Source of the DNA: Candidatus Altimarinota bacterium
GTDB taxonomy: Bacteria; Patescibacteriota; Gracilibacteria; UBA1369
Direction: 5' to 3'
Length of the DNA stretch: 64,000 nucleotides
NCBI GenBank assembly: GCA_963677745.1
Contig: OY782391.1
Coordinates: 288,001 to 352,000 of the forward strand
In this document: positions 38,153 through 49,406 of the stretch, piece by piece
Position numbering within the stretch: position 1 is the stretch's first letter
How the letters are laid out: each line of letters starts with the position of its first letter
Program-made: the position numbers and the translations under genes
Notes under the pieces: generated by a model
The model's database searches: none
What the model was told of the DNA's origin: nothing
What the model saw: the letters and a program-made list of their open reading frames with translations, nothing else

Positions 38153-41100
38153 ATGATTCTCACTACCTCACCGCTGTCGGATCAATCAGAACAGGCGGAA
38201 CAATCAGACCTCCTGAAACCAAACACTACGCCCGATATCCCCGGGTTTACCGATGTTTATTCGCAACAAGCCAGGGAAAAGGCCTGGAAAAACGTCCTGG
38301 AAGTGGCCGGCACACTGACTCCCGGCAAAACCATGGCACTGATGGAAGACCGGTTCGCGCCATATTGCATCCCGCTGATCGGAACTTTCACAGCTGAGGA
38401 TATTGATCAAAAATTACCGGAATTTGCCCATCAAATCCTCCATGAGTTTCAGCATGAGCTGATTTTTTCTCTGCTGGACAACCGGTTGTATCAGTCCCAA
38501 AAAAACGGCTCTTGTTTTGTCTTATGGGCCAAGAACCTGCTGGAAAACACAGCTGTCCCCCCCACACTATACAAGAACTGGAAAGCCGGATTTCCGGATG
38601 ATTTCCAAACCAATCTGGTTATTTTTCTGCAATATCTGGAAGCCAGCCACATCAATTATGACCCCAATTATTTTATCGAAACGGTCAATCAGGTGGACCG
38701 GGATTTAAGTCCATATCTGACCAACCGTCTTCAGGGAGACAGCCTTTATCTAAAAGTCATGTCGGCCGCTGCTCTGCAAAGACAGGAGATAGAAAAAACC
38801 CAGGTGCTTTTTGGCAATAATGCCTGGGTCATGCACCCCTTTACCGATGTGATTTTGGAAATGATTCAGGCAGCCTACCCCGGGCAAAAACTGATGACCG
38901 GACACCCCCAGACCATCCTGGATTATCCGGAAGAAGTCCACCAGGCTTACCTGCGGGACATGGGCAGAATTTTCGACCGACATCCCGAATTGACCCGTCC
39001 CGCTGATATCCCCGTAAATGTGGCAGGTGACTTTGAAGATCCCCTGAGAATCGGCAAACAATATTGGGAAATCCTGGCCTCTACTCCCCTGCCTCCGGAA
39101 ATAATCAATAACCCGTCCACCGCCAAAAAATACATGAACCGTCAGGGATCGATTGAAAAAATCGGCAACAATGTCTTCCATCAGTGGGGAACTACGCTGG
39201 TAAAAAACCTGCCGGACAAACGTGCCGATGGCACCGTTATCAACTATACCAGCGACAAAAACATCAGGTTTTACACCGAATATCAGTCCAGGATGAGACA
39301 GCTTCCGCTGTTCCTGGGCATCGACGTGTTCCTTGATATGTACAGACATTGTACCGGCCTGAAGAAGACCCAGTTTTTCCGCGCTCAAGTAGCCCCGATT
39401 CTGGATTCAGACCCGTCGGGAGTCAGCCTTTACAAATTTTTTAACAATTACAACTGTGATCCGGATTTCCGCCGCGATTTGCTCGGACTCTTGAAACACA
39501 AGGAAAAGTATCTTGACCATTTCATTTCATTGGCCGGAAATGCCCGGATCCCCCGACTGGCTGCCTTTGCCATGAAAGTACTGGCCGATTATTGCGGCTC
39601 CAGCTTTCCCCCTCCAAATTCCGACGGTCTCCTGATACCGGTTGTGGAAAAAACAAATCCACGACTGAAAAATGTAATCAGAAAATTGTTTCCTGATGAA
39701 GAATCCCTTCATGACCAGGTACTGGCCGAAAATTTCATGGTATTCACTTATTTTGTTTACGCCAACAATTTCACCTATAGCCACAACCAGACATCCAACG
39801 GTATAACGAAAAACCCCATTCTCATGTCGAGCAGGGGTGAGGTAACTCCTTATCAGAAAGAACAACTGTATATCCGTCTCTTCACCACCATTCTGAACCG
39901 CAGGGAATTTTTGGATAAATTTATTCTGGAAGAACTGAGAACAAAAGGACTGACCTATCTGGCAGTTGGATTAAAAGAACGCCTGGCCGCCTTACCCGTC
40001 CTGGCCAGACAGAGCGAAGAACATCTGGGAACTATCCGGCTGCGACTGGCTTCTCCCAAAAGAGCCGGACAAGAAACTTTTGAACTTCTAAAAAAGATCG
40101 ACCGGTCCAATCAACCGGATTTCGATAAAAGTGAAAATTTCGTCCGGAACTGTCCTCCTGCTCCCTGCCCCCTGAATTGCGTAATTAGCGTCGACCTGAC
40201 CGGAAACCCCGGTGAAGACTTTTATGTCGTAATCGGCAACACCACTCCGCAAATTATCCCTCCGGTCGACTTTCCAATGCATCTGATCAGACCACGGCTG
40301 GTATCCGACGCAGTACTGCTGGAAAACATCACCCACAATCTGCCCGACGGAGAATCCGACAAAATCCCCGATGAAATAAAGGCAATTATTTACCGGCTTT
40401 TCATCTGTGCCGTCTACACCTACCTGCTGGAAAATCACAGTGATTTATTGGTACCTCCGTCCGACTCCACTCCACCGGCCATCCTGCCCGGAACTCCGGC
40501 CGCAGCCGCATTGCCTGACTCCGCCCAAGCAATTCCTCCCGTCCCGGACCGGCGGCGTCCCAAAAAGAAAGACGACAAGGACACGCTGCTGACTGTGGAT
40601 ATGCGTGATGACCAACAGGAGGAAAGAAGCCGTATGTCCACGCGCATCAACGCCAGACTTACCGAAAACCAGGAGAATCTGCTTAAATTCCTAAACGGCC
40701 AACTGCCTGCGGATGAACTCCCCAATCTGGTTGTACACCGCCAGCTGCCCGGCATGGAGGAAAAACAGTTCGTTTATCAAAGAATCAAACCGGAAGATCT
40801 GCCCGCCATGCTGGCCGCAGGAACACTGTTCGGACCTGATATTCATATTCTGGTTGGAACGCCCTACCTCTGCGCCCAGGGTTATCTGGGACAAAAAAAC
40901 CTGCCGCTCCGGCAAAGTATTTACCGCATCTCCCGCGACACCAGAACCCTCAATGCCGAAATGGCCTATTATGACTATTACCAAAAATCCGGACTGCCCG
41001 ATCTGGGACCACTACACAGCGTGGATGCCGTCTTGCGCCTGCGTGAAAACGCCGACCCCGGACAAAACGGCGACTGCGCCTCGATTAAATACAGCGATCA

Positions 41101-42217
41101 TCTGGGCAAAGAGCATGAAGTAGTGGGAAAAGTTTCCCGGCCCGATCCGGCCATCCATATCATGCAGAGACTGCAGAACGACGGCTATATGGATCATTGG
41201 ATACAATCACAAAAACGTGTACTGGAACAGGAAATACTCGCCGCCCAAAACGACACCCGCCTGACCGACGAACAGAAAAAGCTGGAAACCACCATTAGAA
41301 CAAAAGAGCTGGAAAGTCTGGAAGAACTTAAATTAAAGCTGCTCTACAACACCCGTCTGTTGCCCGACAAAATCCGCGGGGAAACAGGCTCCTCCATCCA
41401 GATCGGTTTGGGTTGGGTGGAAACAGATATTTCTTTTAACCAGGGAACTTATATCAGTATGGAAGAATTTCTGATCGCCCATGCCGACCAGTTCCCGCTG
41501 CTGACAGACTTTATTAAAATTCCTGCGGAATGTCCCGAGCAGAAACGGCCAAAAACCACACTGGAACTGGAAAAACAGGATATTATCCGTGAAATTCATT
41601 CTTTGGCCGAGCTGGTTACCTATCAGAAATACAAGGATATCTTCGGGCAGAAAACCGACGCCGCCAATGGCAACGGCAATGGTAATGGGAATGGAAACGG
41701 GAACGGACAAGCGGTAAAAAATTCGGCCGACAGCCGTCAGAAAACGATGCTGGCCTGCGAGGCCCATTTGTCGGCGCTCATCACACTTTACAAAGACCTC
41801 CAGCCGGTCATGGACCGGGTGCTGGTCGGCTCGAAAAGTTTTGATCTGCTGACCATCCGCGGCGACCAGGCTTTCCTGTGGGAGGTAAAAAGCATTAATA
41901 CCGGCGACCGCAACGAAGATAAACAATTGCGCGCCGCCCTCGGCCAGCTGCCTGAATATCAGTTCTTCGGCATCGAAAACCGTCCGGAAATAAATTCGGG
42001 AATCACCACCGTCACCAAGGCCGTTTTACTTAGTGAAAAACCCCAAATGCTCAGTAATGGCAGCAACCAGACCGCCCAAAATTACCTGAAGTTTCTGGAA
42101 AACCAGCTGGGCATATTCACTTTTTGGCTGGAGGAAGGCCGCCTAAACGGATCACCCGCGGCCATGGAAAAGCTGAAAAATTTTCTACTGCCTGACCAAT
42201 CCGCCCCACCCGAATGA
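38153..42217 (+). CDS. Large hypothetical protein with C-terminal PD-(D/E)XK-like nuclease domain
   Basis: 1354 aa; FDLL...LWEVKS...QLRAALGQLPEY near the C-terminus, after an (NG)n linker. Confidence 0.7.
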   Translation: MILTTSPLSDQSEQAEQSDLLKPNTTPDIPGFTDVYSQQAREKAWKNVLEVAGTLTPGKTMALMEDRFAPYCIPLIGTFTAEDIDQKLPEFAHQILHEFQHELIFSLLDNRLYQSQKNGSCFVLWAKNLLENTAVPPTLYKNWKAGFPDDFQTNLVIFLQYLEASHINYDPNYFIETVNQVDRDLSPYLTNRLQGDSLYLKVMSAAALQRQEIEKTQVLFGNNAWVMHPFTDVILEMIQAAYPGQKLMTGHPQTILDYPEEVHQAYLRDMGRIFDRHPELTRPADIPVNVAGDFEDPLRIGKQYWEILASTPLPPEIINNPSTAKKYMNRQGSIEKIGNNVFHQWGTTLVKNLPDKRADGTVINYTSDKNIRFYTEYQSRMRQLPLFLGIDVFLDMYRHCTGLKKTQFFRAQVAPILDSDPSGVSLYKFFNNYNCDPDFRRDLLGLLKHKEKYLDHFISLAGNARIPRLAAFAMKVLADYCGSSFPPPNSDGLLIPVVEKTNPRLKNVIRKLFPDEESLHDQVLAENFMVFTYFVYANNFTYSHNQTSNGITKNPILMSSRGEVTPYQKEQLYIRLFTTILNRREFLDKFILEELRTKGLTYLAVGLKERLAALPVLARQSEEHLGTIRLRLASPKRAGQETFELLKKIDRSNQPDFDKSENFVRNCPPAPCPLNCVISVDLTGNPGEDFYVVIGNTTPQIIPPVDFPMHLIRPRLVSDAVLLENITHNLPDGESDKIPDEIKAIIYRLFICAVYTYLLENHSDLLVPPSDSTPPAILPGTPAAAALPDSAQAIPPVPDRRRPKKKDDKDTLLTVDMRDDQQEERSRMSTRINARLTENQENLLKFLNGQLPADELPNLVVHRQLPGMEEKQFVYQRIKPEDLPAMLAAGTLFGPDIHILVGTPYLCAQGYLGQKNLPLRQSIYRISRDTRTLNAEMAYYDYYQKSGLPDLGPLHSVDAVLRLRENADPGQNGDCASIKYSDHLGKEHEVVGKVSRPDPAIHIMQRLQNDGYMDHWIQSQKRVLEQEILAAQNDTRLTDEQKKLETTIRTKELESLEELKLKLLYNTRLLPDKIRGETGSSIQIGLGWVETDISFNQGTYISMEEFLIAHADQFPLLTDFIKIPAECPEQKRPKTTLELEKQDIIREIHSLAELVTYQKYKDIFGQKTDAANGNGNGNGNGNGNGQAVKNSADSRQKTMLACEAHLSALITLYKDLQPVMDRVLVGSKSFDLLTIRGDQAFLWEVKSINTGDRNEDKQLRAALGQLPEYQFFGIENRPEINSGITTVTKAVLLSEKPQMLSNGSNQTAQNYLKFLENQLGIFTFWLEEGRLNGSPAAMEKLKNFLLPDQSAPPE

Positions 42218-42301: not shown

Positions 42302-45300
42302 CTAACTTGTTTCACCAACCACAATCATCTTGGCCGATTCGGCGCGTGTGACATTATTGGCCGGACCGCAGACACCGGTCGGATTGCCGCTGGCATCTTT
42401 ATATCCGCCGACAATTCCATGGGCTAAAGCAAAATTGAAATACGGAGCATACCATTCCGACTGAATCACATCGGTACAAGCGTTGTTGGCAGCCGCAGCA
42501 GCAACCTGTTCAGGGGTAACCCAGGTCAGCAAAATCATTTTGAGTGCCTCACTGCGAGTGGCATTGGCGGTAAGTTTGAAAGTACCATCGGTATAACCTC
42601 TGACAATTCCAAGCTCCTTGGCCTTGGCAATATAAGCCGCAGCCCAATGACCGGCAGGGACATCGCGGTATGGAGACACCGTAACCGCAGGAAGTACTCC
42701 ATATTTTACTTTCATCAACAAAACAATCAGTTCGGCACGCGTAATCCGATTTTCGGGTTTAAACTGATGAGTCGCATTGCCGCTGGCATCGGTATATCCA
42801 TCCACACCGGCCTGATGCAGTTCATTGATAAATGTCTCCGCCCAGTGACCGGCAACATCGTTAAAGAAAGCTGTTTCACCGGTAGTTTCCGTAGTCGTGT
42901 CGGTGGCAGTAGTGTCATTAACATTGTTTCCGGTGGTACCGGTACAGTTGGTACCGCTGCAGGACGCACGACCAAAGGCCGCCGACCCACCACCTCCGCC
43001 TCCACCTCCGCCGCCTCCGCCGGCACTGACAACCGTAAAGGCGAAGCTGTTGGTACCTGATAAAGCATTACCGGCCAAATCCTTGGCGGTGGTCAAAGTA
43101 ATAGTCACGGCAGATCCGGCCGTCCAGGCGACCGCATGGGTCAGCGTTACCGTCTTATTGGCATTGGACCATACCGGAGCAGCATAAACCTTACCGGTAC
43201 TGTCGGTGAAAGCAAAAGTAGCCGTATCGATAGCTTCACTGAAATTGATAACTACCGTTCCCGCCTGAGGCACACTCACGGCCCCATTGGCCGGTGCGCT
43301 GGAGGACATTGTGGGAGGAGTATTGTCTGCATCATATTCACTGAAACCGGTAACATCATACGTAAGAGTCTGAGCCAGGGCACTCCAAACGAAATTGGAA
43401 ACCGTACCATGCCCGCCGCTCAGCACATAGGAATCCAGCGGACCGGCAGTATTGGGAATATTTTCAATCACAGCACCCAGATCATCTTTCACCGTTAAAG
43501 CGGGTTGCACTGCCGTAGGCATACGCATCATCAGAGTGGCTCCATAGTCCAGAGCGTAAAGAGCCGAGCTGTCCACTCTCATCACAGTATTGGAAATTGT
43601 CACGTTGGTACCGAAAGCCGACAGCGCATTTACCGTCCCCATATCAGTCAGATTGACCGGATCGGTAAAGGTAAGTCTGCCATAATCATTCACACCATCA
43701 TTGGCATTGAAAGATAGTCCGACAATATTGGTGAAATCGATAATATCGGAAAAATCAGTCGTAAAAGCATTATTCAGATAGGTAAACGCCGGATCAAATT
43801 TCGGATTCACGTTGAATACCCCGACAAATGTGTCTGAGAGATTGCTTTCAGTAATATTCCCCGCATCATCAATTAACTGGAAATTCATCACGTAACCAGT
43901 CTGCTGGGAAGGCCAAGCTGAAAGATTGGCCAGGTCAAAATCAGAAGTTGAGGAAGTGGGGCTACCCACCGTCATAGGATCAGCTTTGGCAGGATTGGCA
44001 AAATCCCCGGTATTGCAAAGACTGTTCGGGGAATCATCTTCCATGGAAGTAAAACAGAGATTTACAGCCGCCAGAGGATTACCATCAACCTCAACGATAT
44101 TATTCACCTGCACTCTCACATGATCCTCTGCCGGACTGTCATAGTAATACCAAAGGTTGGTAGGCCAAGTGGTTGCCGCACCGGCCTGGGTGAGTGCCAC
44201 GACCGGAGTAAGCACAGTAAAGAGAGGTTTAATAGTATCAATCGTATAGTTGTTGGTGCCGGCGGTTGTCGTTACATTTCCCGCATCGTCAGTGACAGTC
44301 ACGGTAACGTTGTTGTTAATATCGTCCTGTGAGGTTAAAGCCAGAAAACTCGTATAAGTACTGGCACCGGGAAACGATCCGTTGCCTGCCGCAGGACTTC
44401 CCGAACCATCAAGATCCACAGTATTAAAATCGACCGAAGCAATATCATCATTGGCACCACTCAGATAATCAGCGCAACCTGCTGTGTTATCCCAGGTTGG
44501 CGTGGCAAAATCGCCATTGTTGAAAGCTCCACCCGTTCCATGCGCACCCGCAACAGAAATACAAGCAGTCGTCACAACCGGAGCCTGCGTATCAATATTA
44601 AATACGGCCGGAACACTCGGACCTTCCACGTTACCCGGTACATCCGTAGCCAAAGAACTTTCGACAGTAACCCCCACACTCTCCTCGTCAACATCGGTCA
44701 AATCAAAAGTTTCATACCAGATATTGGGACTGTTCCATAAACCATTGGTAATACCATCAGCATTGGACACAAAAGCCCCTACATTTCCGGCAAAAGTAAT
44801 CGTAGGAGTTGAAAGCGGATCCATCGGTTCGCTATAAATAACCGTAGCATCCTGTAACAAAGTTGTGTCATTGAGCAATACCGATCCACGATAGACATTT
44901 GCGATAGGAGCAGCCTCGTCATCAACAGTTGCAGCCACCCAATCCTGCGGCTGATTACTATTTACATCAATTACATTACCCAAATTAGTAAAACTCAAAG
45001 TGGGCGATACCGCACCACCGGTTTTGCCCGCATCGGCAGACACATCCAATCGCACATCAGACCCGACTGCCACACCAGCATAAGCATTGGTTATATTGAC
45101 ACTGCCCGGATTGGGAAAAGACCATTCCCCTCCGCCAATACCCGACATGTTTACAGGCTCGGTAAAACTGACATCAACGCGGTCTACCGTACCGTCGGAA
45201 GTTATATCTTTATAGTCATAATCAATCGGCACCGGATTCGCATAATCAAACATACCGGTAATGGTAAAATCGGCGGAATTATTAGGATGAGCACTGGAAT

Positions 45301-46807
45301 CAACAATGTTATTGCCCGCGGTAAAACTCAAGTCCGGTTCTGTTCCGGCAATACCTACTCCGGTAATATCCGCATTGGCAGTAGCATCCAAAGACACTTG
45401 ATCCTGATTTGTACAGCTACTACAACCGGTAACATCAAAACCTGTCAGATCATTTGGTGTCGCCGCCCAGTCAGTATCCTGATAGACATATGTCACTCGT
45501 TCGGAAAAAACCACCCCGACATAATCAACCTGTCCATCATTATCAGTATCAACATAATGTGCCCCAAGCATAATCGGAAGAGCAAAATCCGTAGCGGCAG
45601 TGGCCCCCCCCTCAATGGCAATGCGATTTCCTGCTGCATCTCCTAAACTCCCGTTGGCAGTAATCTGTACCGTGGGTGTAGCAGCAGAGTCACAACCACT
45701 ATTATTGACACGAACACATGAACCGGGATTTTCCAATAATTGAACCAGAAATTGATCATCGTTGGCCACTCCGGCGGTATCATAACCGGTAACCGTATAG
45801 CCCGGCACAGTTACTGTCAGCGTGGAAAAATTATCATTTAAATTTTGCGAGGCAAACATTCTGATCGCATCAATTTTACCATTGGCATCCTGATCTTCCG
45901 TATGCCGGGCCACAATCGTCGGGGTGATTGTATCAACGGCAAGCCCTTCTCCACCACCCAAATTATCATTAACCTGATCATTACCATGAACATCGCGGGC
46001 ACCAATAATACTATTTGCTAAAAGAGTTACTTCCTCATTGACATCGGCTACTGTAAAAAACGCCCGATAGGTGTTTTGGTCCATCCAATATGATGAACCT
46101 GTATTAGTCAGAGTACCTGAAGTAATGATGTTTGGAGTAAAACCAAAGACTGGAGGTAGCGGGCTCATATTATCCTCACTACCGGTAATCGGATTCGTAA
46201 AATCAACCGTGATATGAAATGTATCAACACCGACCAGTGCATCATTAATTAAAGTAGTACTCAAAGCAGACGGCACCACATCTGACACCGGAGCGGCTGT
46301 ATCCACCAATTCCGCCATATTGTTACTGAACCCAGACGCTGCGGCCGGATCATCGGAATCCGAAGCCGTTATCATAACTTTAGAAGACGGACTTCCGCCA
46401 GCCACATCAATTCCGCTGGCACCGGCATCGGCAATCATAAAAGTTGTTTCCCAAAGATCATTGACACCATTATTACAGGTATCCACCGCCAAAGCCTGCA
46501 TGAATGAACCTCCATAAGTTGTTAAATCAACAGTTACCGTTGGAACTGCAGTAGTACAATCACCATTTGCCACATTATCGGTATTGCTGATGTCCGCATC
46601 GATTTCTATGGTATCACCGATATTGGCAAAGGTATTTCCATCGGCATCAGTTAACAAAGTTAAGGAAACACTATTGACAGTGATACTCCCCGGTGCCGCC
46701 CTGGCCACCTCAATTCCGGTTGCATTTAAAACCAGACTGGCTGCCAGAACAATCAGTGAAAAAGGCACTAACGGTGTTCGCCGAAAGTGTCGGTGAAATA
46801 TTTTCAT
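42302..46807 (-). CDS. 1501-aa SLH-anchored acidic surface protein with Ig-like repeats
   Basis: Signal peptide, D.D.NG.ID Ca-binding-like motifs, Big_5 (VVINFSEAID), poly-Gly linker, three SLH repeats. Confidence 0.85.
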   Translation of the reverse strand: MKIFHRHFRRTPLVPFSLIVLAASLVLNATGIEVARAAPGSITVNSVSLTLLTDADGNTFANIGDTIEIDADISNTDNVANGDCTTAVPTVTVDLTTYGGSFMQALAVDTCNNGVNDLWETTFMIADAGASGIDVAGGSPSSKVMITASDSDDPAAASGFSNNMAELVDTAAPVSDVVPSALSTTLINDALVGVDTFHITVDFTNPITGSEDNMSPLPPVFGFTPNIITSGTLTNTGSSYWMDQNTYRAFFTVADVNEEVTLLANSIIGARDVHGNDQVNDNLGGGEGLAVDTITPTIVARHTEDQDANGKIDAIRMFASQNLNDNFSTLTVTVPGYTVTGYDTAGVANDDQFLVQLLENPGSCVRVNNSGCDSAATPTVQITANGSLGDAAGNRIAIEGGATAATDFALPIMLGAHYVDTDNDGQVDYVGVVFSERVTYVYQDTDWAATPNDLTGFDVTGCSSCTNQDQVSLDATANADITGVGIAGTEPDLSFTAGNNIVDSSAHPNNSADFTITGMFDYANPVPIDYDYKDITSDGTVDRVDVSFTEPVNMSGIGGGEWSFPNPGSVNITNAYAGVAVGSDVRLDVSADAGKTGGAVSPTLSFTNLGNVIDVNSNQPQDWVAATVDDEAAPIANVYRGSVLLNDTTLLQDATVIYSEPMDPLSTPTITFAGNVGAFVSNADGITNGLWNSPNIWYETFDLTDVDEESVGVTVESSLATDVPGNVEGPSVPAVFNIDTQAPVVTTACISVAGAHGTGGAFNNGDFATPTWDNTAGCADYLSGANDDIASVDFNTVDLDGSGSPAAGNGSFPGASTYTSFLALTSQDDINNNVTVTVTDDAGNVTTTAGTNNYTIDTIKPLFTVLTPVVALTQAGAATTWPTNLWYYYDSPAEDHVRVQVNNIVEVDGNPLAAVNLCFTSMEDDSPNSLCNTGDFANPAKADPMTVGSPTSSTSDFDLANLSAWPSQQTGYVMNFQLIDDAGNITESNLSDTFVGVFNVNPKFDPAFTYLNNAFTTDFSDIIDFTNIVGLSFNANDGVNDYGRLTFTDPVNLTDMGTVNALSAFGTNVTISNTVMRVDSSALYALDYGATLMMRMPTAVQPALTVKDDLGAVIENIPNTAGPLDSYVLSGGHGTVSNFVWSALAQTLTYDVTGFSEYDADNTPPTMSSSAPANGAVSVPQAGTVVINFSEAIDTATFAFTDSTGKVYAAPVWSNANKTVTLTHAVAWTAGSAVTITLTTAKDLAGNALSGTNSFAFTVVSAGGGGGGGGGGGGSAAFGRASCSGTNCTGTTGNNVNDTTATDTTTETTGETAFFNDVAGHWAETFINELHQAGVDGYTDASGNATHQFKPENRITRAELIVLLMKVKYGVLPAVTVSPYRDVPAGHWAAAYIAKAKELGIVRGYTDGTFKLTANATRSEALKMILLTWVTPEQVAAAAANNACTDVIQSEWYAPYFNFALAHGIVGGYKDASGNPTGVCGPANNVTRAESAKMIVVGETS

Positions 46808-46926
46808 AATTAAAAATTAAACTTTACTGCAAAAGAAAATACATCTTTATTACAAAATGTTCTTTAAAAATGCTTGCCCAATTTCCGTTTTAAAGCGTGC
46901 CTCCGATTAATCCGGTCCACCACAAT

Positions 46927-46959
46927 AAAAAGAAGCCATCCTTGCGGATGGCTTCTTTT
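46927..46959 (-). terminator. Intrinsic terminator of the large ncRNA
   Basis: Minus strand: AAAAGAAGCCATCC-GCAA-GGATGGCTTCTTTTT. Confidence 0.85.
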
Positions 46960-47546
46960 GTACCTAACTAAAACCTTACTCTGTCCCCTAAGATTTTTTA
47001 AGATTGTTCACAAAGTTGAATACAAGATAAGTTATATCTGGCTTTACAAGTGTATTTCCCTTGAAGCGACCCGACTTGCGTCAAGCGACCCAAGCTTAAT
47101 TGGTGATATTCAGACACGAACCTTGGTAAAGACTTTCTTCACCAGTATTTCATATAGATGATCTTACCTTGAACAGCGTTACCACTATTCTCGTTCAATC
47201 ACAGAATGTTTTCTTCCTTTCCTGTCTTTCGATAAGAAGGATCGTTAACACCCTCATAGAACCAACCAGTTCAAACACATTTCTTTTTTATTCATCCTTC
47301 GGGACTCCCCGAGAACGACATAAAAAAGGAACAATCCCTATTGAGCGTCCCTCATAACCCCTTTCGAAGTTACTTAAGCGAGCAAGACCGAAGTCTTACT
47401 TTAACAACAGGTTTTCTTAGAGAACCTACCCACTTTCGTGAGGAGGAAAGTTTATAGGAAGGGCCGAAAAACCATTTTATGGTCTCTCAACTCTTCCTAA
47501 AAGCTTTTTTTTGTGATGTCAAAGAACGGTTTCTCTTTTCAGTCTT
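46927..47546 (-). ncRNA. Large (~620 nt) structured non-coding RNA, family unassigned
   Basis: No credible ORF; own promoter, boxA and terminator; about 10 hairpins with GNRA/UUCG loops and G.U pairs that work only on the minus strand. Confidence 0.75.
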
Positions 47547-47581
47547 CATATCATTATACTACCGACAAACTAATATTGCAA
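47517..47581 (-). promoter_or_regulatory. Sigma70 promoter and boxA-like element of the large ncRNA
   Basis: TTGCAA (47581-47576)-17 nt-TATAAT (47558-47553); GTTCTTTGACA (47527-47517). Confidence 0.75.
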
Positions 47582-47667
47582 GAATAATCTTTTATCGTCT
47601 GCCTACTTACGATAAGATTTTGAACGAATGGTTTCTGTTATAAGATAGCAGTCGTAATCACCACCGT

Positions 47668-48465
47668 ATGAATAAACATTTCCGACTTAAATCCATAGTG
47701 GGCCGCGGTGCCCAGAATATAGTCGGCAGACTGGAAGATGACGACCGGCTGATCAAATTCCCCCACTGGACCGGTGCCAGATGGGACAAAAGCAGCGCGA
47801 AAAGCATCCTCGGCGATCTGGGAATTCATCTCCGCCGGAGCAATCCCATTCCGGAAACCAGCGTTGTGACCGAGCCTACCATTGATTTCGGCAGAAAAAT
47901 CATCAAACCGCCCTTTGCCGTGCTGGCCGAGGAAATCAGGGGAAAAGCACTGCGTGAAGCCGATCTGGTTAATCCGGACATCAAAGACCAGTTCAGTACC
48001 CTCATCAAAACCTCTCTGGCCATCCGGGAAGAAACCGGCTCCGGCGTGGACTTCATGGGCTTTGAATCAATCGGACATCTTTTTGAATATTTCCTGGGCA
48101 AAATTTCCGCTGACCAATTGGCAGCCTGTAATATTTTGATCGATTCCCGGGGACAAATTAAATTGATCGACACCAGTCTGCTTTCACCGGCCCGCGCCCC
48201 CTTCGGAGTGGGCTGGGCCATCGATTTCCTGATCGACGTACAGCACGGTTTGATGGCTGAAGTCCTGCAGGACCAAGAGCTGCTGGGTAAATGCAGCACA
48301 GACAACCACTCCCGGCTGATGACAAAACTGGCGGAAAAAGTTTATCAGTTGTCGCGCAGCCAAGATCCAGAAAAATTACCGGATCTCAGATCACCCCGTC
48401 ACCAAAATTTATTAAATGCCAACCATGCCCTCCCCCTTCACGGCCTACATCCTGGAGTGCAGTGA
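47668..48465 (+). CDS. Divergent protein-kinase-like fold protein
   Basis: VGRGAQNIV...LIKFP...NILIDSRGQIKLID. Confidence 0.5.
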   Translation: MNKHFRLKSIVGRGAQNIVGRLEDDDRLIKFPHWTGARWDKSSAKSILGDLGIHLRRSNPIPETSVVTEPTIDFGRKIIKPPFAVLAEEIRGKALREADLVNPDIKDQFSTLIKTSLAIREETGSGVDFMGFESIGHLFEYFLGKISADQLAACNILIDSRGQIKLIDTSLLSPARAPFGVGWAIDFLIDVQHGLMAEVLQDQELLGKCSTDNHSRLMTKLAEKVYQLSRSQDPEKLPDLRSPRHQNLLNANHALPLHGLHPGVQ

Positions 48466-48700
48466 TCAAACTCTCTATATTGGTTCCACCAACGACCTGC
48501 CCAAAAGACTGCATGCCCACAATCACCTCAAATCGGGGGCCAGATATACCAAAGCCCGGCGTCCGGTCCGGCTTATTTATCAGGAAAATTTCGAAACTTT
48601 CAGCGAGGCCAAAAAACGCGAGGCCGTTTTAAAAAGACTTTCCCGCAAAGAAAAACTTCTGCTAATCGCTGCCGGATTGCCCACTACAGAACGGATTTGA
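48425..48700 (+). CDS. GIY-YIG nuclease, UPF0213/YhbQ family
   Basis: YILECSDQTLYIGSTNDLPKRL..HN...GARYTKARRPVRL...A.KRE..LKRLSR..K. Confidence 0.85.
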   Translation: MPSPFTAYILECSDQTLYIGSTNDLPKRLHAHNHLKSGARYTKARRPVRLIYQENFETFSEAKKREAVLKRLSRKEKLLLIAAGLPTTERI

Positions 48701-48716
48701 TACAGCCTTTCCATTT

Positions 48717-49406
48717 TTACCAGAGCGGAGCTTCCACCAGTTTTGCCGTTTCTCCCCAGACTTTCAGAGGATTTGACTGATGAGGATGACCTTCCACCTG
48801 TACTATTTTCCAGGGAACCAGCTGATCCGTTGGCAAACCGTCCTTTTCCAGAATGGCTTTGGAAGGCAAAAAGACCAGATTCTCCTCGTCCATCATGCGA
48901 ATCACCACCATAGTATAGTCCTGCTCAAACTTTACCGAAACAATGCGACCGCCCAGCGTAGTGTTTCGGTCAAAATCGTAACTGTCCCTGGGTTCAAAAT
49001 TCTGATCGGGTGACCGCTTGATGGTATCAGGATTCATCTGATAGTTGATGGCTGCTATCTTCCAACTGCCGTCTTCTTTGGCAAATCCCACCAGCATTTC
49101 AATCCGCTGTGTTTTACCGGGATTCTGGACGTCGTTAAGGTTGGCAGTCAGATTAAGCGCAGCTTTTTCTCCTTCGGTTCCCAAATTTTCCACCTGATAA
49201 GAGATAGGCTGCATGGCCACCGCCATATCGGCAAACTGCGCCAGCTCCTCCGGTCCGATTTCCGGCGGATACATCTCCGACTGTAACCGGCCGGTTAAAA
49301 GTTTTTTGGCTTCGTCAAAATTTCTGGCGCGCACCGCCGAAACATATTGATCATAGACAGCCTGTAAATCGGCGACAGCAGGTGAATTGGAATTATTTTC
49401 GGTCAT
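48717..49406 (-). CDS. Hypothetical protein with NTF2-like N-terminal domain
   Basis: YVSAVRARNFDEAKKLL...F.KEDGSWKI. Confidence 0.6.
   Translation of the reverse strand: MTENNSNSPAVADLQAVYDQYVSAVRARNFDEAKKLLTGRLQSEMYPPEIGPEELAQFADMAVAMQPISYQVENLGTEGEKAALNLTANLNDVQNPGKTQRIEMLVGFAKEDGSWKIAAINYQMNPDTIKRSPDQNFEPRDSYDFDRNTTLGGRIVSVKFEQDYTMVVIRMMDEENLVFLPSKAILEKDGLPTDQLVPWKIVQVEGHPHQSNPLKVWGETAKLVEAPLW

Follow-up and report, generated by a model that had tools for sequence, protein, structure and literature searches.

A conserved, independently transcribed ~620-nt structured RNA of an apparently uncatalogued class in Patescibacteria

We describe an RNA gene on the minus strand (positions 46921–47546) of a 64,000-nt stretch of the genome of a Candidatus Altimarinota bacterium (hereafter the window), which belongs to the Patescibacteria, or Candidate Phyla Radiation (CPR). 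The gene is a stand-alone unit whose product, of ~620 nt, folds into about 22 helices. The RNA is non-coding, conserved, folded, independently transcribed and dispensable, and it is present in the RNA libraries of four studies. We favour, with moderate confidence, a reading in which the locus is an independent gene for a structured non-coding RNA (ncRNA) of an uncatalogued CPR class that would be made with the aid of a boxA element and would act in trans. A first-pass annotation made from the letters of the window had proposed a stable large ncRNA at this place, and covariation, metatranscriptome contigs and the lack of an Rfam match all support that proposal.

Evidence for the RNA comes from the way its homologues vary. 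We collected 23 full-length homologues (alignment A4) and also analysed an alignment of 14 sequences (A2). For the 14 sequences, RNAalifold gave a structure of 211 pairs in which 92.2% of cells were paired, compared with 82.8% after shuffling. Both sides had changed in 112 of these 211 pairs, compared with 55.8 ± 4.6 in shuffled alignments (none of 500 shuffles reached the observed value) and with 38–49 in controls in which the partners were slid by 1–3 columns. For the 23 sequences, the structure had 193 pairs in 23 helices, the terminator included, with 91.9% of cells paired versus 80.6% after shuffling; both sides had changed in 129 pairs, compared with 73.1 ± 4.2 in shuffled alignments (again reached by none of 500) and 51–69 in slid controls, and the covariation score was 0.461 versus 0.245. 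Helices 3 and 12 apart, each helix of at least three pairs had both partners changed in half of its pairs or more. Compensatory changes therefore exceed both kinds of control, and we conclude that the fold of the RNA is conserved by selection. Covariation in CPR genomes had been proposed as a check by the first-pass annotation, and by these pair counts it is strong.

The window sequence itself folds well on the sense strand, with a minimum free energy (MFE) of −211.1 kcal/mol compared with −154.3 ± 7.7 in a set of 20 shuffled sequences (z = −7.4); on the antisense strand the value is −152.4 kcal/mol (z = −4.6). The assignment to the minus strand that had been made from G-U pairs and GNRA/UUCG loops thus holds, because the sense strand folds far better than the antisense strand. 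All eight hairpins that had been picked out by eye were recovered on the minus strand, both in the MFE fold and in the consensus projected on the window sequence. The 5′-most of these, H1 (47455..47499), has an invariant base UAGGAAG/CUUCCUA (TAGGAAG...CTTCCTA in the DNA) and a tip of variable length; it corresponds to helix 1, in which 11 of 17 pairs have changed on both sides and 92.3% of cells are paired. The others are CTCAC-GAAA-GTGGG (47442–47429), GTAAGAC-TTCG-GTCTTGC (47400–47381), TAACTTC-GAAA-GGGGTTA, TTTTTTAT..TCGGG-GAGT-CCCGA..ATAAAAAA (47328–47283), AATAGTG-GTAA-CGCTGTT (47194–47167), TGGTGAAGA-AAG-TCTTTACCA (47142–47126) and TTGAC-GCAA-GTCGG.

In the RNAalifold consensus, a core domain (46971..47453, minus strand) of nested multi-way junctions and hairpins is closed by an 11-bp long-range helix that pairs AAACUUUCCUC (47453–47443) with GAGUAAGGUUU (46981–46971). 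The hairpin loops of the core are GAAA, UUCG, GAAA, GAGU, GAAA, GUAA and GCAA. Within the core, helices 13–21 form a central sub-domain (47048..47282, minus strand), and the hairpin of helix 21 carries two GGUCGC blocks that hardly vary. Across the 23 sequences, 74 columns are invariant and lie in blocks at junctions and internal loops. Among the unpaired columns of this alignment we found no covarying helix of at least four pairs that would indicate a pseudoknot; the sole pairing there is a 4-bp UUGA/UUAA match of doubtful meaning. Inspection of the consensus loops by eye revealed no self-complementary loop of the kissing-dimer type.

The gene lies in an intergenic gap of 830 nt, between the end of an open reading frame (ORF) near 47638 and the start of a 1501-aa ORF at 46807, and no sense ORF in the RNA region exceeds 39 aa. 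Upstream of the RNA, a promoter scan found the −35 hexamer TTGCAA (47576..47581) and the −10 hexamer TATAAT (47553..47558) on the minus strand, with a 17-nt spacer and together 10 of 12 consensus matches; the −10 region is aligned and conserved in alignment A1. The promoter proposed in the first-pass annotation, TTGCAA-17-TATAAT, is thus present at 47581..47553, and transcription is predicted from these elements to start near 47546. In all 23 homologues, a promoter-like hexamer pair (9–12 of 12 consensus matches, spacer of 16–18 nt) precedes a boxA-like motif, at a distance of 5–25 nt, with the best-scoring pair 59 nt upstream of the motif in one homologue. The promoter is of the sigma-70 type and is kept in all homologues.

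At the other end of the gene, an unpaired 3′ tail (the UUAGUUAGGUAC region, 46960..46970, minus strand) lies between the closing helix and the terminator; it is conserved and unpaired in the consensus, and its block GGTTTTAG is near-invariant in alignments A2 and A4. The MFE fold then forms an intrinsic terminator (46921..46959, minus strand) with a 14-bp stem, AAAAGAAGCCAUCC-GCAA-GGAUGGCUUCUUUU (46959–46928), followed by a U run. This is the GCAA-capped stem and T run that had been noted before, and indeed every sequence element listed in the first-pass annotation is present on the minus strand. A simple terminator scan did not list a terminator on this strand; the stem takes up part of the T run. 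As helix 23 of the 23-sequence consensus, the terminator has 14 pairs, 10 of them changed on both sides, and is 94.4% paired. Promoter and terminator are the gene's own and are conserved, and the downstream gene is not. We conclude that the RNA gene is transcribed as a unit of its own, from a promoter and to an intrinsic terminator that both occur in all homologues.

Just past the promoter, the single-stranded 5′ leader contains a boxA-like motif, GTTCTTTGACAT (47516..47527, minus strand, placed by projection of the consensus), in which GTTCTTTGACA occupies 47527–47517. In all 23 homologues, the motif matches GTTCTTTGAAA at 8–11 of 11 positions. We compared it with the leaders of 16S ribosomal RNA (rRNA) genes in the window's own genome and four others of the order (a further genome, G024, gave no 16S match). 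The 16S leaders carry GGTCATTAACA (own genome, G000), GTTCTTTAACA (G196 and G161), GCCCTTTAACA (G040) and GATCTTTCAAA (G205), in each case a boxA of the GTTCTTTAACA type followed by a GTAGTAGAGAAG block. A near-identical motif in five 16S leaders supports the boxA reading. According to PMC4807359, NusB and NusE bind BoxA in rRNA; by analogy of sequence, the motif in the window may recruit Nus factors. The likeness to rRNA leaders extends to placement, since a GTTCTTTGACA-type motif stands directly past the promoter, at the head of a transcript that is long, structured and untranslated. The two settings differ in that the window motif precedes a 600-nt ncRNA instead of an rRNA, and that no GTAGTAGAGAAG block follows it. 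The rRNA genes themselves are unlinked in this genome (G000:C1:136623–145832). Behind the 16S gene, at 144335–145832 (minus strand), come a terminator-like hairpin, then two tRNA genes with an apparent promoter of their own, and then an apparent coding sequence; the 23S gene, at 136623–139636, has its own leader and a TTGACT-17-TATAAT promoter.

The first-pass annotation had suggested looking for metatranscriptome coverage, and contigs from the RNA libraries of four studies do fall on the gene. Parts of a 641-nt stretch spanning the gene were found in 20 public runs, of which 12 are labelled as RNA; the RNA-labelled runs hold 21–52% of the sampled 31-mers. They are metatranscriptomes of sediment, soil, rice paddy and estuary (studies P3, P4, P6 and P7), together with one run of study P5 that is guessed to be RNA. 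Contigs of four RNA runs from four studies were placed on window positions 45400–49100. They comprise a 488-nt contig (46963–47450, 9 differences, word depth 128), a 481-nt contig (47001–47450, 6 differences, depth 26), a 324-nt contig (46998–47316, 2 differences, depth 31) and a 269-nt contig (46998–47255, no differences, depth 5). No contig of these four runs fell on 45400–46887 or 47508–49100, where lack of coverage counts as no evidence. Contigs of different studies stop alike, at 47450 just inside the closing helix (X6 and X7) and at 46998 (X11 and X12); at 47450, X7 runs on into 31 unrelated letters and X6 has no loose end. Processing, differences between strains or breaks in the assembly could each account for these shared stops.

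The distribution of the RNA was determined by sequence and by structure. Of 41 related genomes searched by BLAST, 9 have it, its own included, at 68–85% identity. A degenerate 23-position pattern built from the alignment was run on the species-genome collection and on metagenomes. It matched 16 stretches of the genome collection, 10 of which were confirmed by nhmmer, and 27 metagenome stretches, 6 of which were confirmed; the unconfirmed matches (6 and 21) are chance hits in unrelated organisms with no similarity beyond the pattern. Where their titles are informative, the confirmed homologues belong to Candidatus Peribacteria, Peregrinibacteria, Gracilibacteria, Altimarinota or a 'Patescibacteria group', with one exception titled Bacteroidia, so the record titles bear out the placement of the RNA in the CPR that had been made beforehand. 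The 'Bacteroidia bacterium' contig (L039, 16,894 bp) has the same nhmmer score and span as a Gracilibacteria-titled contig from the same site (L032, 16,902 bp), and is probably a mis-binned CPR contig.

For wider surveys we used a covariance model, R1, built from alignment A3 of the central sub-domain (237 positions, 58 pairs), which scores 213 bits on the window and 133–237 bits on homologues; in surveys of more than 40 genomes, filters were stricter and 14 candidates were scored per genome. The RNA was detected in 8 of 36 genomes and 7 of 25 genera of the family sample, and in 16 of 151 genomes and 3 of 19 families of the order sample. By family, the order counts are 5 of 22 (f1), 7 of 21 (f17) and 3 of 11 (f18), and 0 of 96 in the 16 other families. 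The class sample gave 5 of 151 genomes, all of the same order, and the phylum sample of 151 gave the window's own genome only; R1 thus found no RNA outside that one order in either the class or the phylum sample. Scores are bimodal (133–237 bits or nothing), and the gaps therefore look like absence rather than drift past detection. Among the genomes searched, the RNA class is confined to three families of one order of Patescibacteria. Even within a genus its presence varies: complete genome G196 has the RNA and G020, a complete one-contig genome of the same genus, does not.

The complete genome that contains the window has a single copy of the RNA. In G005 there are two copies (L008 on G005:C82 and L010 on G005:C87) that are sisters in the RNA tree and have long diverged (branch lengths of 0.42 and 0.39), with the fold kept in both; they are retained paralogues, unless the bin, for which a contamination of 5% is given, mixes two strains. 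In the tree, f1 and four metagenome sequences split from f17 and f18, and host-family labels require 5 changes compared with 11.8 when shuffled (0 of 200 shuffles). The tree thus follows host families, and descent with repeated loss therefore fits better than frequent transfer. We conclude that the RNA is mostly single-copy and mainly vertically inherited, and that it has been lost many times.

We compared the whole window with the 4227 families of Rfam 15 by cmscan, and found no match at the gathering level at the RNA locus. The only gathering-level match in the 64 kb is a SAM riboswitch at 12437–12547 (plus strand), a SAM-I aptamer that scores 50.3 bits against a gathering score of 44.4. A relaxed cmscan of 46700–47800 (E ≤ 10) gave 21 weak matches, all far under the gathering scores; the best of those that overlap the RNA reach 11.7–24.4 bits against gathering scores of 40–440, and most of the 21 are terminator look-alikes or microRNA and small nucleolar RNA models, with no large-RNA family among them. 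In this relaxed search there was no match to OLE, ROOL, GOLLD, HEARO, raiA, introns, RNase P, signal recognition particle (SRP) RNA or 6S RNA, and the RNA at seven diverged homologue loci matched no family at E ≤ 1. The comparison with Rfam that the first-pass annotation had advised has yielded no match, even at E ≤ 10, whether to ROOL, GOLLD, OLE, RNase P and group I/II introns or to SRP, 6S and transfer-messenger RNA (tmRNA).

Housekeeping RNAs were located elsewhere in the complete 1,335,835-bp genome from which the window comes. It has 16S and 23S rRNA genes, an RNase P RNA at C1:405247–405740 (170.5 bits) and a tmRNA at C1:701797–702237 (105.7 bits), and the possibility that the RNA is one of the latter two was rejected, both being found at other loci. 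The RNase P match (G000:C1:405247–405740) covers 494 nt compared with 367 model positions, implying sizeable insertions, and a 6S RNA candidate at G000:C1:602254–602414 (minus strand) scores 41.1 bits, below the gathering score of 46.4. SRP RNA was detected by the small-SRP model in none of the 36 family genomes, the window's own included, and the large-SRP model found none in the window's genome. The same SRP searches were positive in most control genomes; this lineage either lacks an SRP RNA or has one that is highly diverged. That the RNA might be the SRP RNA of the family was rejected, as no SRP model matched the locus at E ≤ 10. In addition, the RNA occurs in 8 of 36 family genomes, none of which gave a small-SRP match, nor did the other 28; the distributions do not complement each other, and the RNA therefore cannot be the family's SRP RNA.

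Full-text literature searches, whose coverage stops short of the supplements of discovery papers and of motif collections, returned no large RNA of the CPR and no text that pairs 'Peregrinibacteria' with 'noncoding RNA'. CPR taxon names are likewise absent from the main-text portions of PMC11109978 and PMC5737381, a coverage that ends before the supplements with the motif lists. Given that no Rfam 15 family matches and that no large CPR RNA appears in this literature, we rate the RNA as a new class: it looks like a previously uncatalogued class of large bacterial RNA. By new we mean that no catalogued family shows a detectable relationship to it; 'large orphan ncRNA' as a loose category is already known. 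The option of a new class, one of two that the first-pass annotation had left side by side, thus gains support from the absence of an Rfam 15 match in the window and at the seven homologue loci; the other, a divergent ROOL, GOLLD or OLE, does not, with no match even at E ≤ 10.

The genes that flank the RNA differ between genera and lie on either strand. Across loci, their products include an SLH/Big_5 giant protein, ATP synthase a, RecR, MarR, a DEAD-box helicase, an oxidoreductase, a trehalose-phosphate synthase/phosphatase, a STAS protein, an HD-domain protein and methyltransferases. A scan of 24 neighbouring proteins revealed no integrase, transposase, reverse transcriptase or phage structural gene. 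In the window, the S-layer-like 1501-aa protein (42302–46807, minus strand) combines a signal-peptide-like N terminus with a Big_5 domain and, at its C terminus, three SLH repeats; SLH-like C termini occur at ~24 loci of the 1.34-Mb genome, an expansion of envelope-anchored proteins that is striking for the CPR. Convergent with the SLH gene is an ORF of 1354 aa (38153–42217, plus strand) with no Pfam match at E ≤ 0.01. On the other side of the RNA, at a distance of ~850 nt upstream from its promoter, lies a stand-alone ORF of 94 aa with a GIY-YIG nuclease domain (48416–48697, plus strand), which overlaps with a 265-aa ORF at the latter's end; G196 has a copy that is 61.5% identical, ~100 kb from its RNA.

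Other explanations of the locus differ in what they predict for its sequence and surroundings. If the region were protein-coding or a decayed gene, its conservation would not stem from RNA structure. Antisense ORFs of 67–108 aa do exist in G000, G002 and G015, with translations 54–77% alike, but this is the identity that 75–85% DNA identity yields, and the longest start-to-stop ORF among the 23 homologues varies from 29 to 108 aa and shifts in frame and strand. With substitutions that compensate one another in helices, and with G-U pairs and the energy gap favouring the sense RNA strand, we give a coding origin virtually no credence: compensatory helix changes and the lack of a conserved ORF refute it. 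The RNA could instead be a long cis-acting leader or riboregulator of the downstream SLH gene, ending in an attenuator. That gene is co-oriented and starts 115 nt past the terminator, and at 6 of 13 loci examined the RNA has an SLH-family ORF no more than 8 kb away. However, this proximity is near chance, because the genome has roughly one SLH locus per 56 kb. Moreover, the next downstream gene changes in nearly every genus (ATP synthase a, RecR, MarR, HD-domain protein, oxidoreductase and others) and is on the opposite strand in several loci; the strong terminator covaries and is kept in all 23 homologues, and no alternative anti-terminator pairing was seen. We rejected the cis-leader explanation as extremely improbable, given the lack of synteny at the loci and the number of SLH loci that explains their recurrence. 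Variable neighbours without mobile genes argue both against a leader and against the idea that the RNA is carried horizontally between hosts as part of a mobile element or prophage. The latter idea might draw on the patchy presence of the RNA (8 of 36 family genomes, 1 of 5 in genus g19), the two copies in G005, the variable context and the small GIY-YIG nuclease gene nearby. Set against these are the agreement of the RNA tree with host families, the scanned neighbours devoid of mobile and phage genes, the single copy in the window's complete genome, and a pattern scan in which the 6 of 16 genome matches that fell in other phyla were chance, leaving no true match in non-CPR genomes (viral collection outside the scan). 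We consider a mobile origin very improbable.

Two further alternatives accept a structured RNA and differ on its identity. One holds that it is a very diverged member of OLE, ROOL, GOLLD, HEARO, raiA, RNase P or SRP RNA for which the Rfam models are too narrow. Like several of these, it is ornate and patchily distributed, and the SRP RNA of 36 family genomes is unaccounted for. However, the sensitive searches of the window and of the seven diverged homologues were empty, RNase P RNA and tmRNA occupy other loci, and the RNA and SRP patterns do not complement each other; nor are there phage or mobile genes nearby, in contrast to many reports on ROOL and GOLLD. Despite a length of ~620 nt that equals that of OLE (~600 nt according to PMC9723947 and PMC12054373), membership of a known family is refuted for practical purposes, and we attach very little probability to it. 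The other alternative is that the RNA is a ribozyme, a large catalytic RNA that would cleave, ligate or process itself or a substrate rather than serve as a passive scaffold. In size, in its nested multi-way junctions and in its many GNRA-capped hairpins it is like a typical large ribozyme, and the invariant blocks in junctions and internal loops (74 columns) and the hardly varying GGUCGC blocks of helix 21 count in favour as well. Two contigs end at 47450 inside the closing helix, possibly a processed 5′ end, but one of them has a loose end and contig ends are not RNA ends. No ribozyme family of Rfam matches, no pseudoknot or covarying tertiary helix resembling a catalytic core was seen among the unpaired columns, and the RNA is not an intron, because no gene is interrupted and there are no flanking exons. 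We therefore regard a ribozyme as unlikely.

The best reading of the locus is a new, abundant, trans-acting large ncRNA that is dispensable in many lineages. It is probably transcribed with the help of Nus factors at the boxA, as judged from the motif, and probably works as a ribonucleoprotein (RNP) scaffold or RNA machine. In the mechanism we propose, the 5′ boxA-like motif would recruit antitermination factors of the NusB/NusE type, on the model of the rRNA leaders in these bacteria. The polymerase would then reach the end of this long and structured transcript, which is not translated, without being stopped by Rho, and folding might be assisted as well; the mature RNA would act in trans as a stable particle. 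Such a particle would most likely be an RNP scaffold resembling OLE, and less likely an RNA-only assembly or a ribozyme; we would rank the OLE-like scaffold first and the ribozyme second, with an RNA-only assembly as a variant of the first. Its function would be accessory, because many relatives live without the RNA. A bolder version would make this the first large 'ornate' RNA of the CPR, a ~600-nt machine made like rRNA (strong promoter, boxA/Nus, possible processing at the closing helix) and accumulating highly as a ribozyme or as a self-assembling or RNP particle with a novel biochemical function; we advance this only tentatively, as a possibility that we rather doubt.

Several observations weigh against the reading of a boxA-aided, trans-acting RNA of a new class. 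Of the 36 genomes in its own family, 28 lack the RNA, the complete G020 among them, and it therefore cannot be an essential housekeeping RNA. No partner emerged. The divergent neighbour of 265 aa (P0001), which has no Pfam match, was rejected as a partner: it occurs in 14 of 151 order genomes, of which 3 (of the 16 RNA-positive genomes) have the RNA and 11 do not. A comparison of the ORFs of the window's genome with those of the complete G196 (RNA present) and with 73% of G020 (RNA absent) gave 118 that are in G196 and not in the compared part of G020, with no RNA-related candidate among them. Most lie in two syntenic blocks of core genes, including ORFs of the size of RNA polymerase and ribosomal proteins, whose G020 copies are probably in the remaining 400 kb. 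The other ORFs resemble SDR proteins, a small GIY-YIG nuclease, TspO and HAD hydrolases, or, by eye, uracil-DNA glycosylase, Fpg, SixA, PRC-barrel proteins and PRPP synthetase. At the DNA level, G196 and G020 are too diverged for synteny, with 67–72% identity in short patches. The boxA-like 10-mer occurs 24 times in the genome compared with ~19 expected, and is neither over-represented nor rarer than chance; moreover, the 23S leader motif is less similar to that of the RNA. Of the boxA proposed in the first-pass annotation, what stands is a motif present in 23 of 23 homologues and close to the 16S-leader boxA; its 10-mer being no rarer than chance leaves it plausible, not proven. The library contigs give no strand, ends or level, and RNA libraries may contain DNA. 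Novelty is judged from full-text literature searches and Rfam 15 only. Finally, the shuffle control ignores relatedness, although the slid control keeps relatedness and agrees with it.

Large bacterial RNAs with complex conserved folds are, to our knowledge, few; they include the rRNAs, RNase P, tmRNA, group I/II introns, OLE, GOLLD, ROOL, HEARO and raiA. Each has revealed new biochemistry or stays a well-known puzzle. CPR genomes are reduced (1–1.5 Mb), with little space for non-essential DNA. The window RNA would join these large RNAs as a new one, and as the first tied to the CPR/Patescibacteria. With ~620 nt, 23 natural variants and 129 base pairs changed on both sides, it is a good target for structure determination. 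Through its rRNA-like boxA, one could test whether Nus-factor antitermination is linked to the synthesis of a structured RNA outside the ribosome. Some related genomes carry the RNA and others lack it, two complete ones in one genus included, so that comparative genomics and metatranscriptomics could point to its partners and its role.

Set beside known systems, the RNA resembles raiA as a stand-alone structured ncRNA that is probably abundant. It differs from raiA, which is ~200 nt long and occurs in Bacillota and Actinomycetota, and it does not match the raiA model of Rfam. In one species, according to PMC12968392, raiA motif RNA is comparable in abundance to rRNA and tRNA. With ROOL and GOLLD the window RNA shares the character of a large ornate bacterial RNA with many GNRA-type loops. 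ROOL and GOLLD are often reported in a phage or tRNA context; the window RNA, by contrast, lacks such a context at the loci scanned, is vertically inherited within one CPR order, and has no Rfam match to either. ROOL and GOLLD form RNA-only homo-oligomers in cryo-electron microscopy, as described in PMC12286853. By analogy, homo-oligomeric assembly is a possible mode of action for the window RNA. OLE (ornate, large, extremophilic) RNA, which is localised to the membrane, sits inside an operon, whereas the window RNA stands alone with its own promoter and terminator; the hosts also differ (Bacillota versus CPR), and the OLE model of Rfam does not match. OLE is described as a ~600-nt RNA that acts as an RNP particle (PMC9723947, PMC12054373 and PMC12286853), with OapA, OapB and OapC as its partner proteins (PMC9723947 and PMC12054373). 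The window RNA shares with OLE a length of ~600 nt, an intricate multi-helix fold with highly conserved blocks, a patchy distribution and the lack of a cis target.

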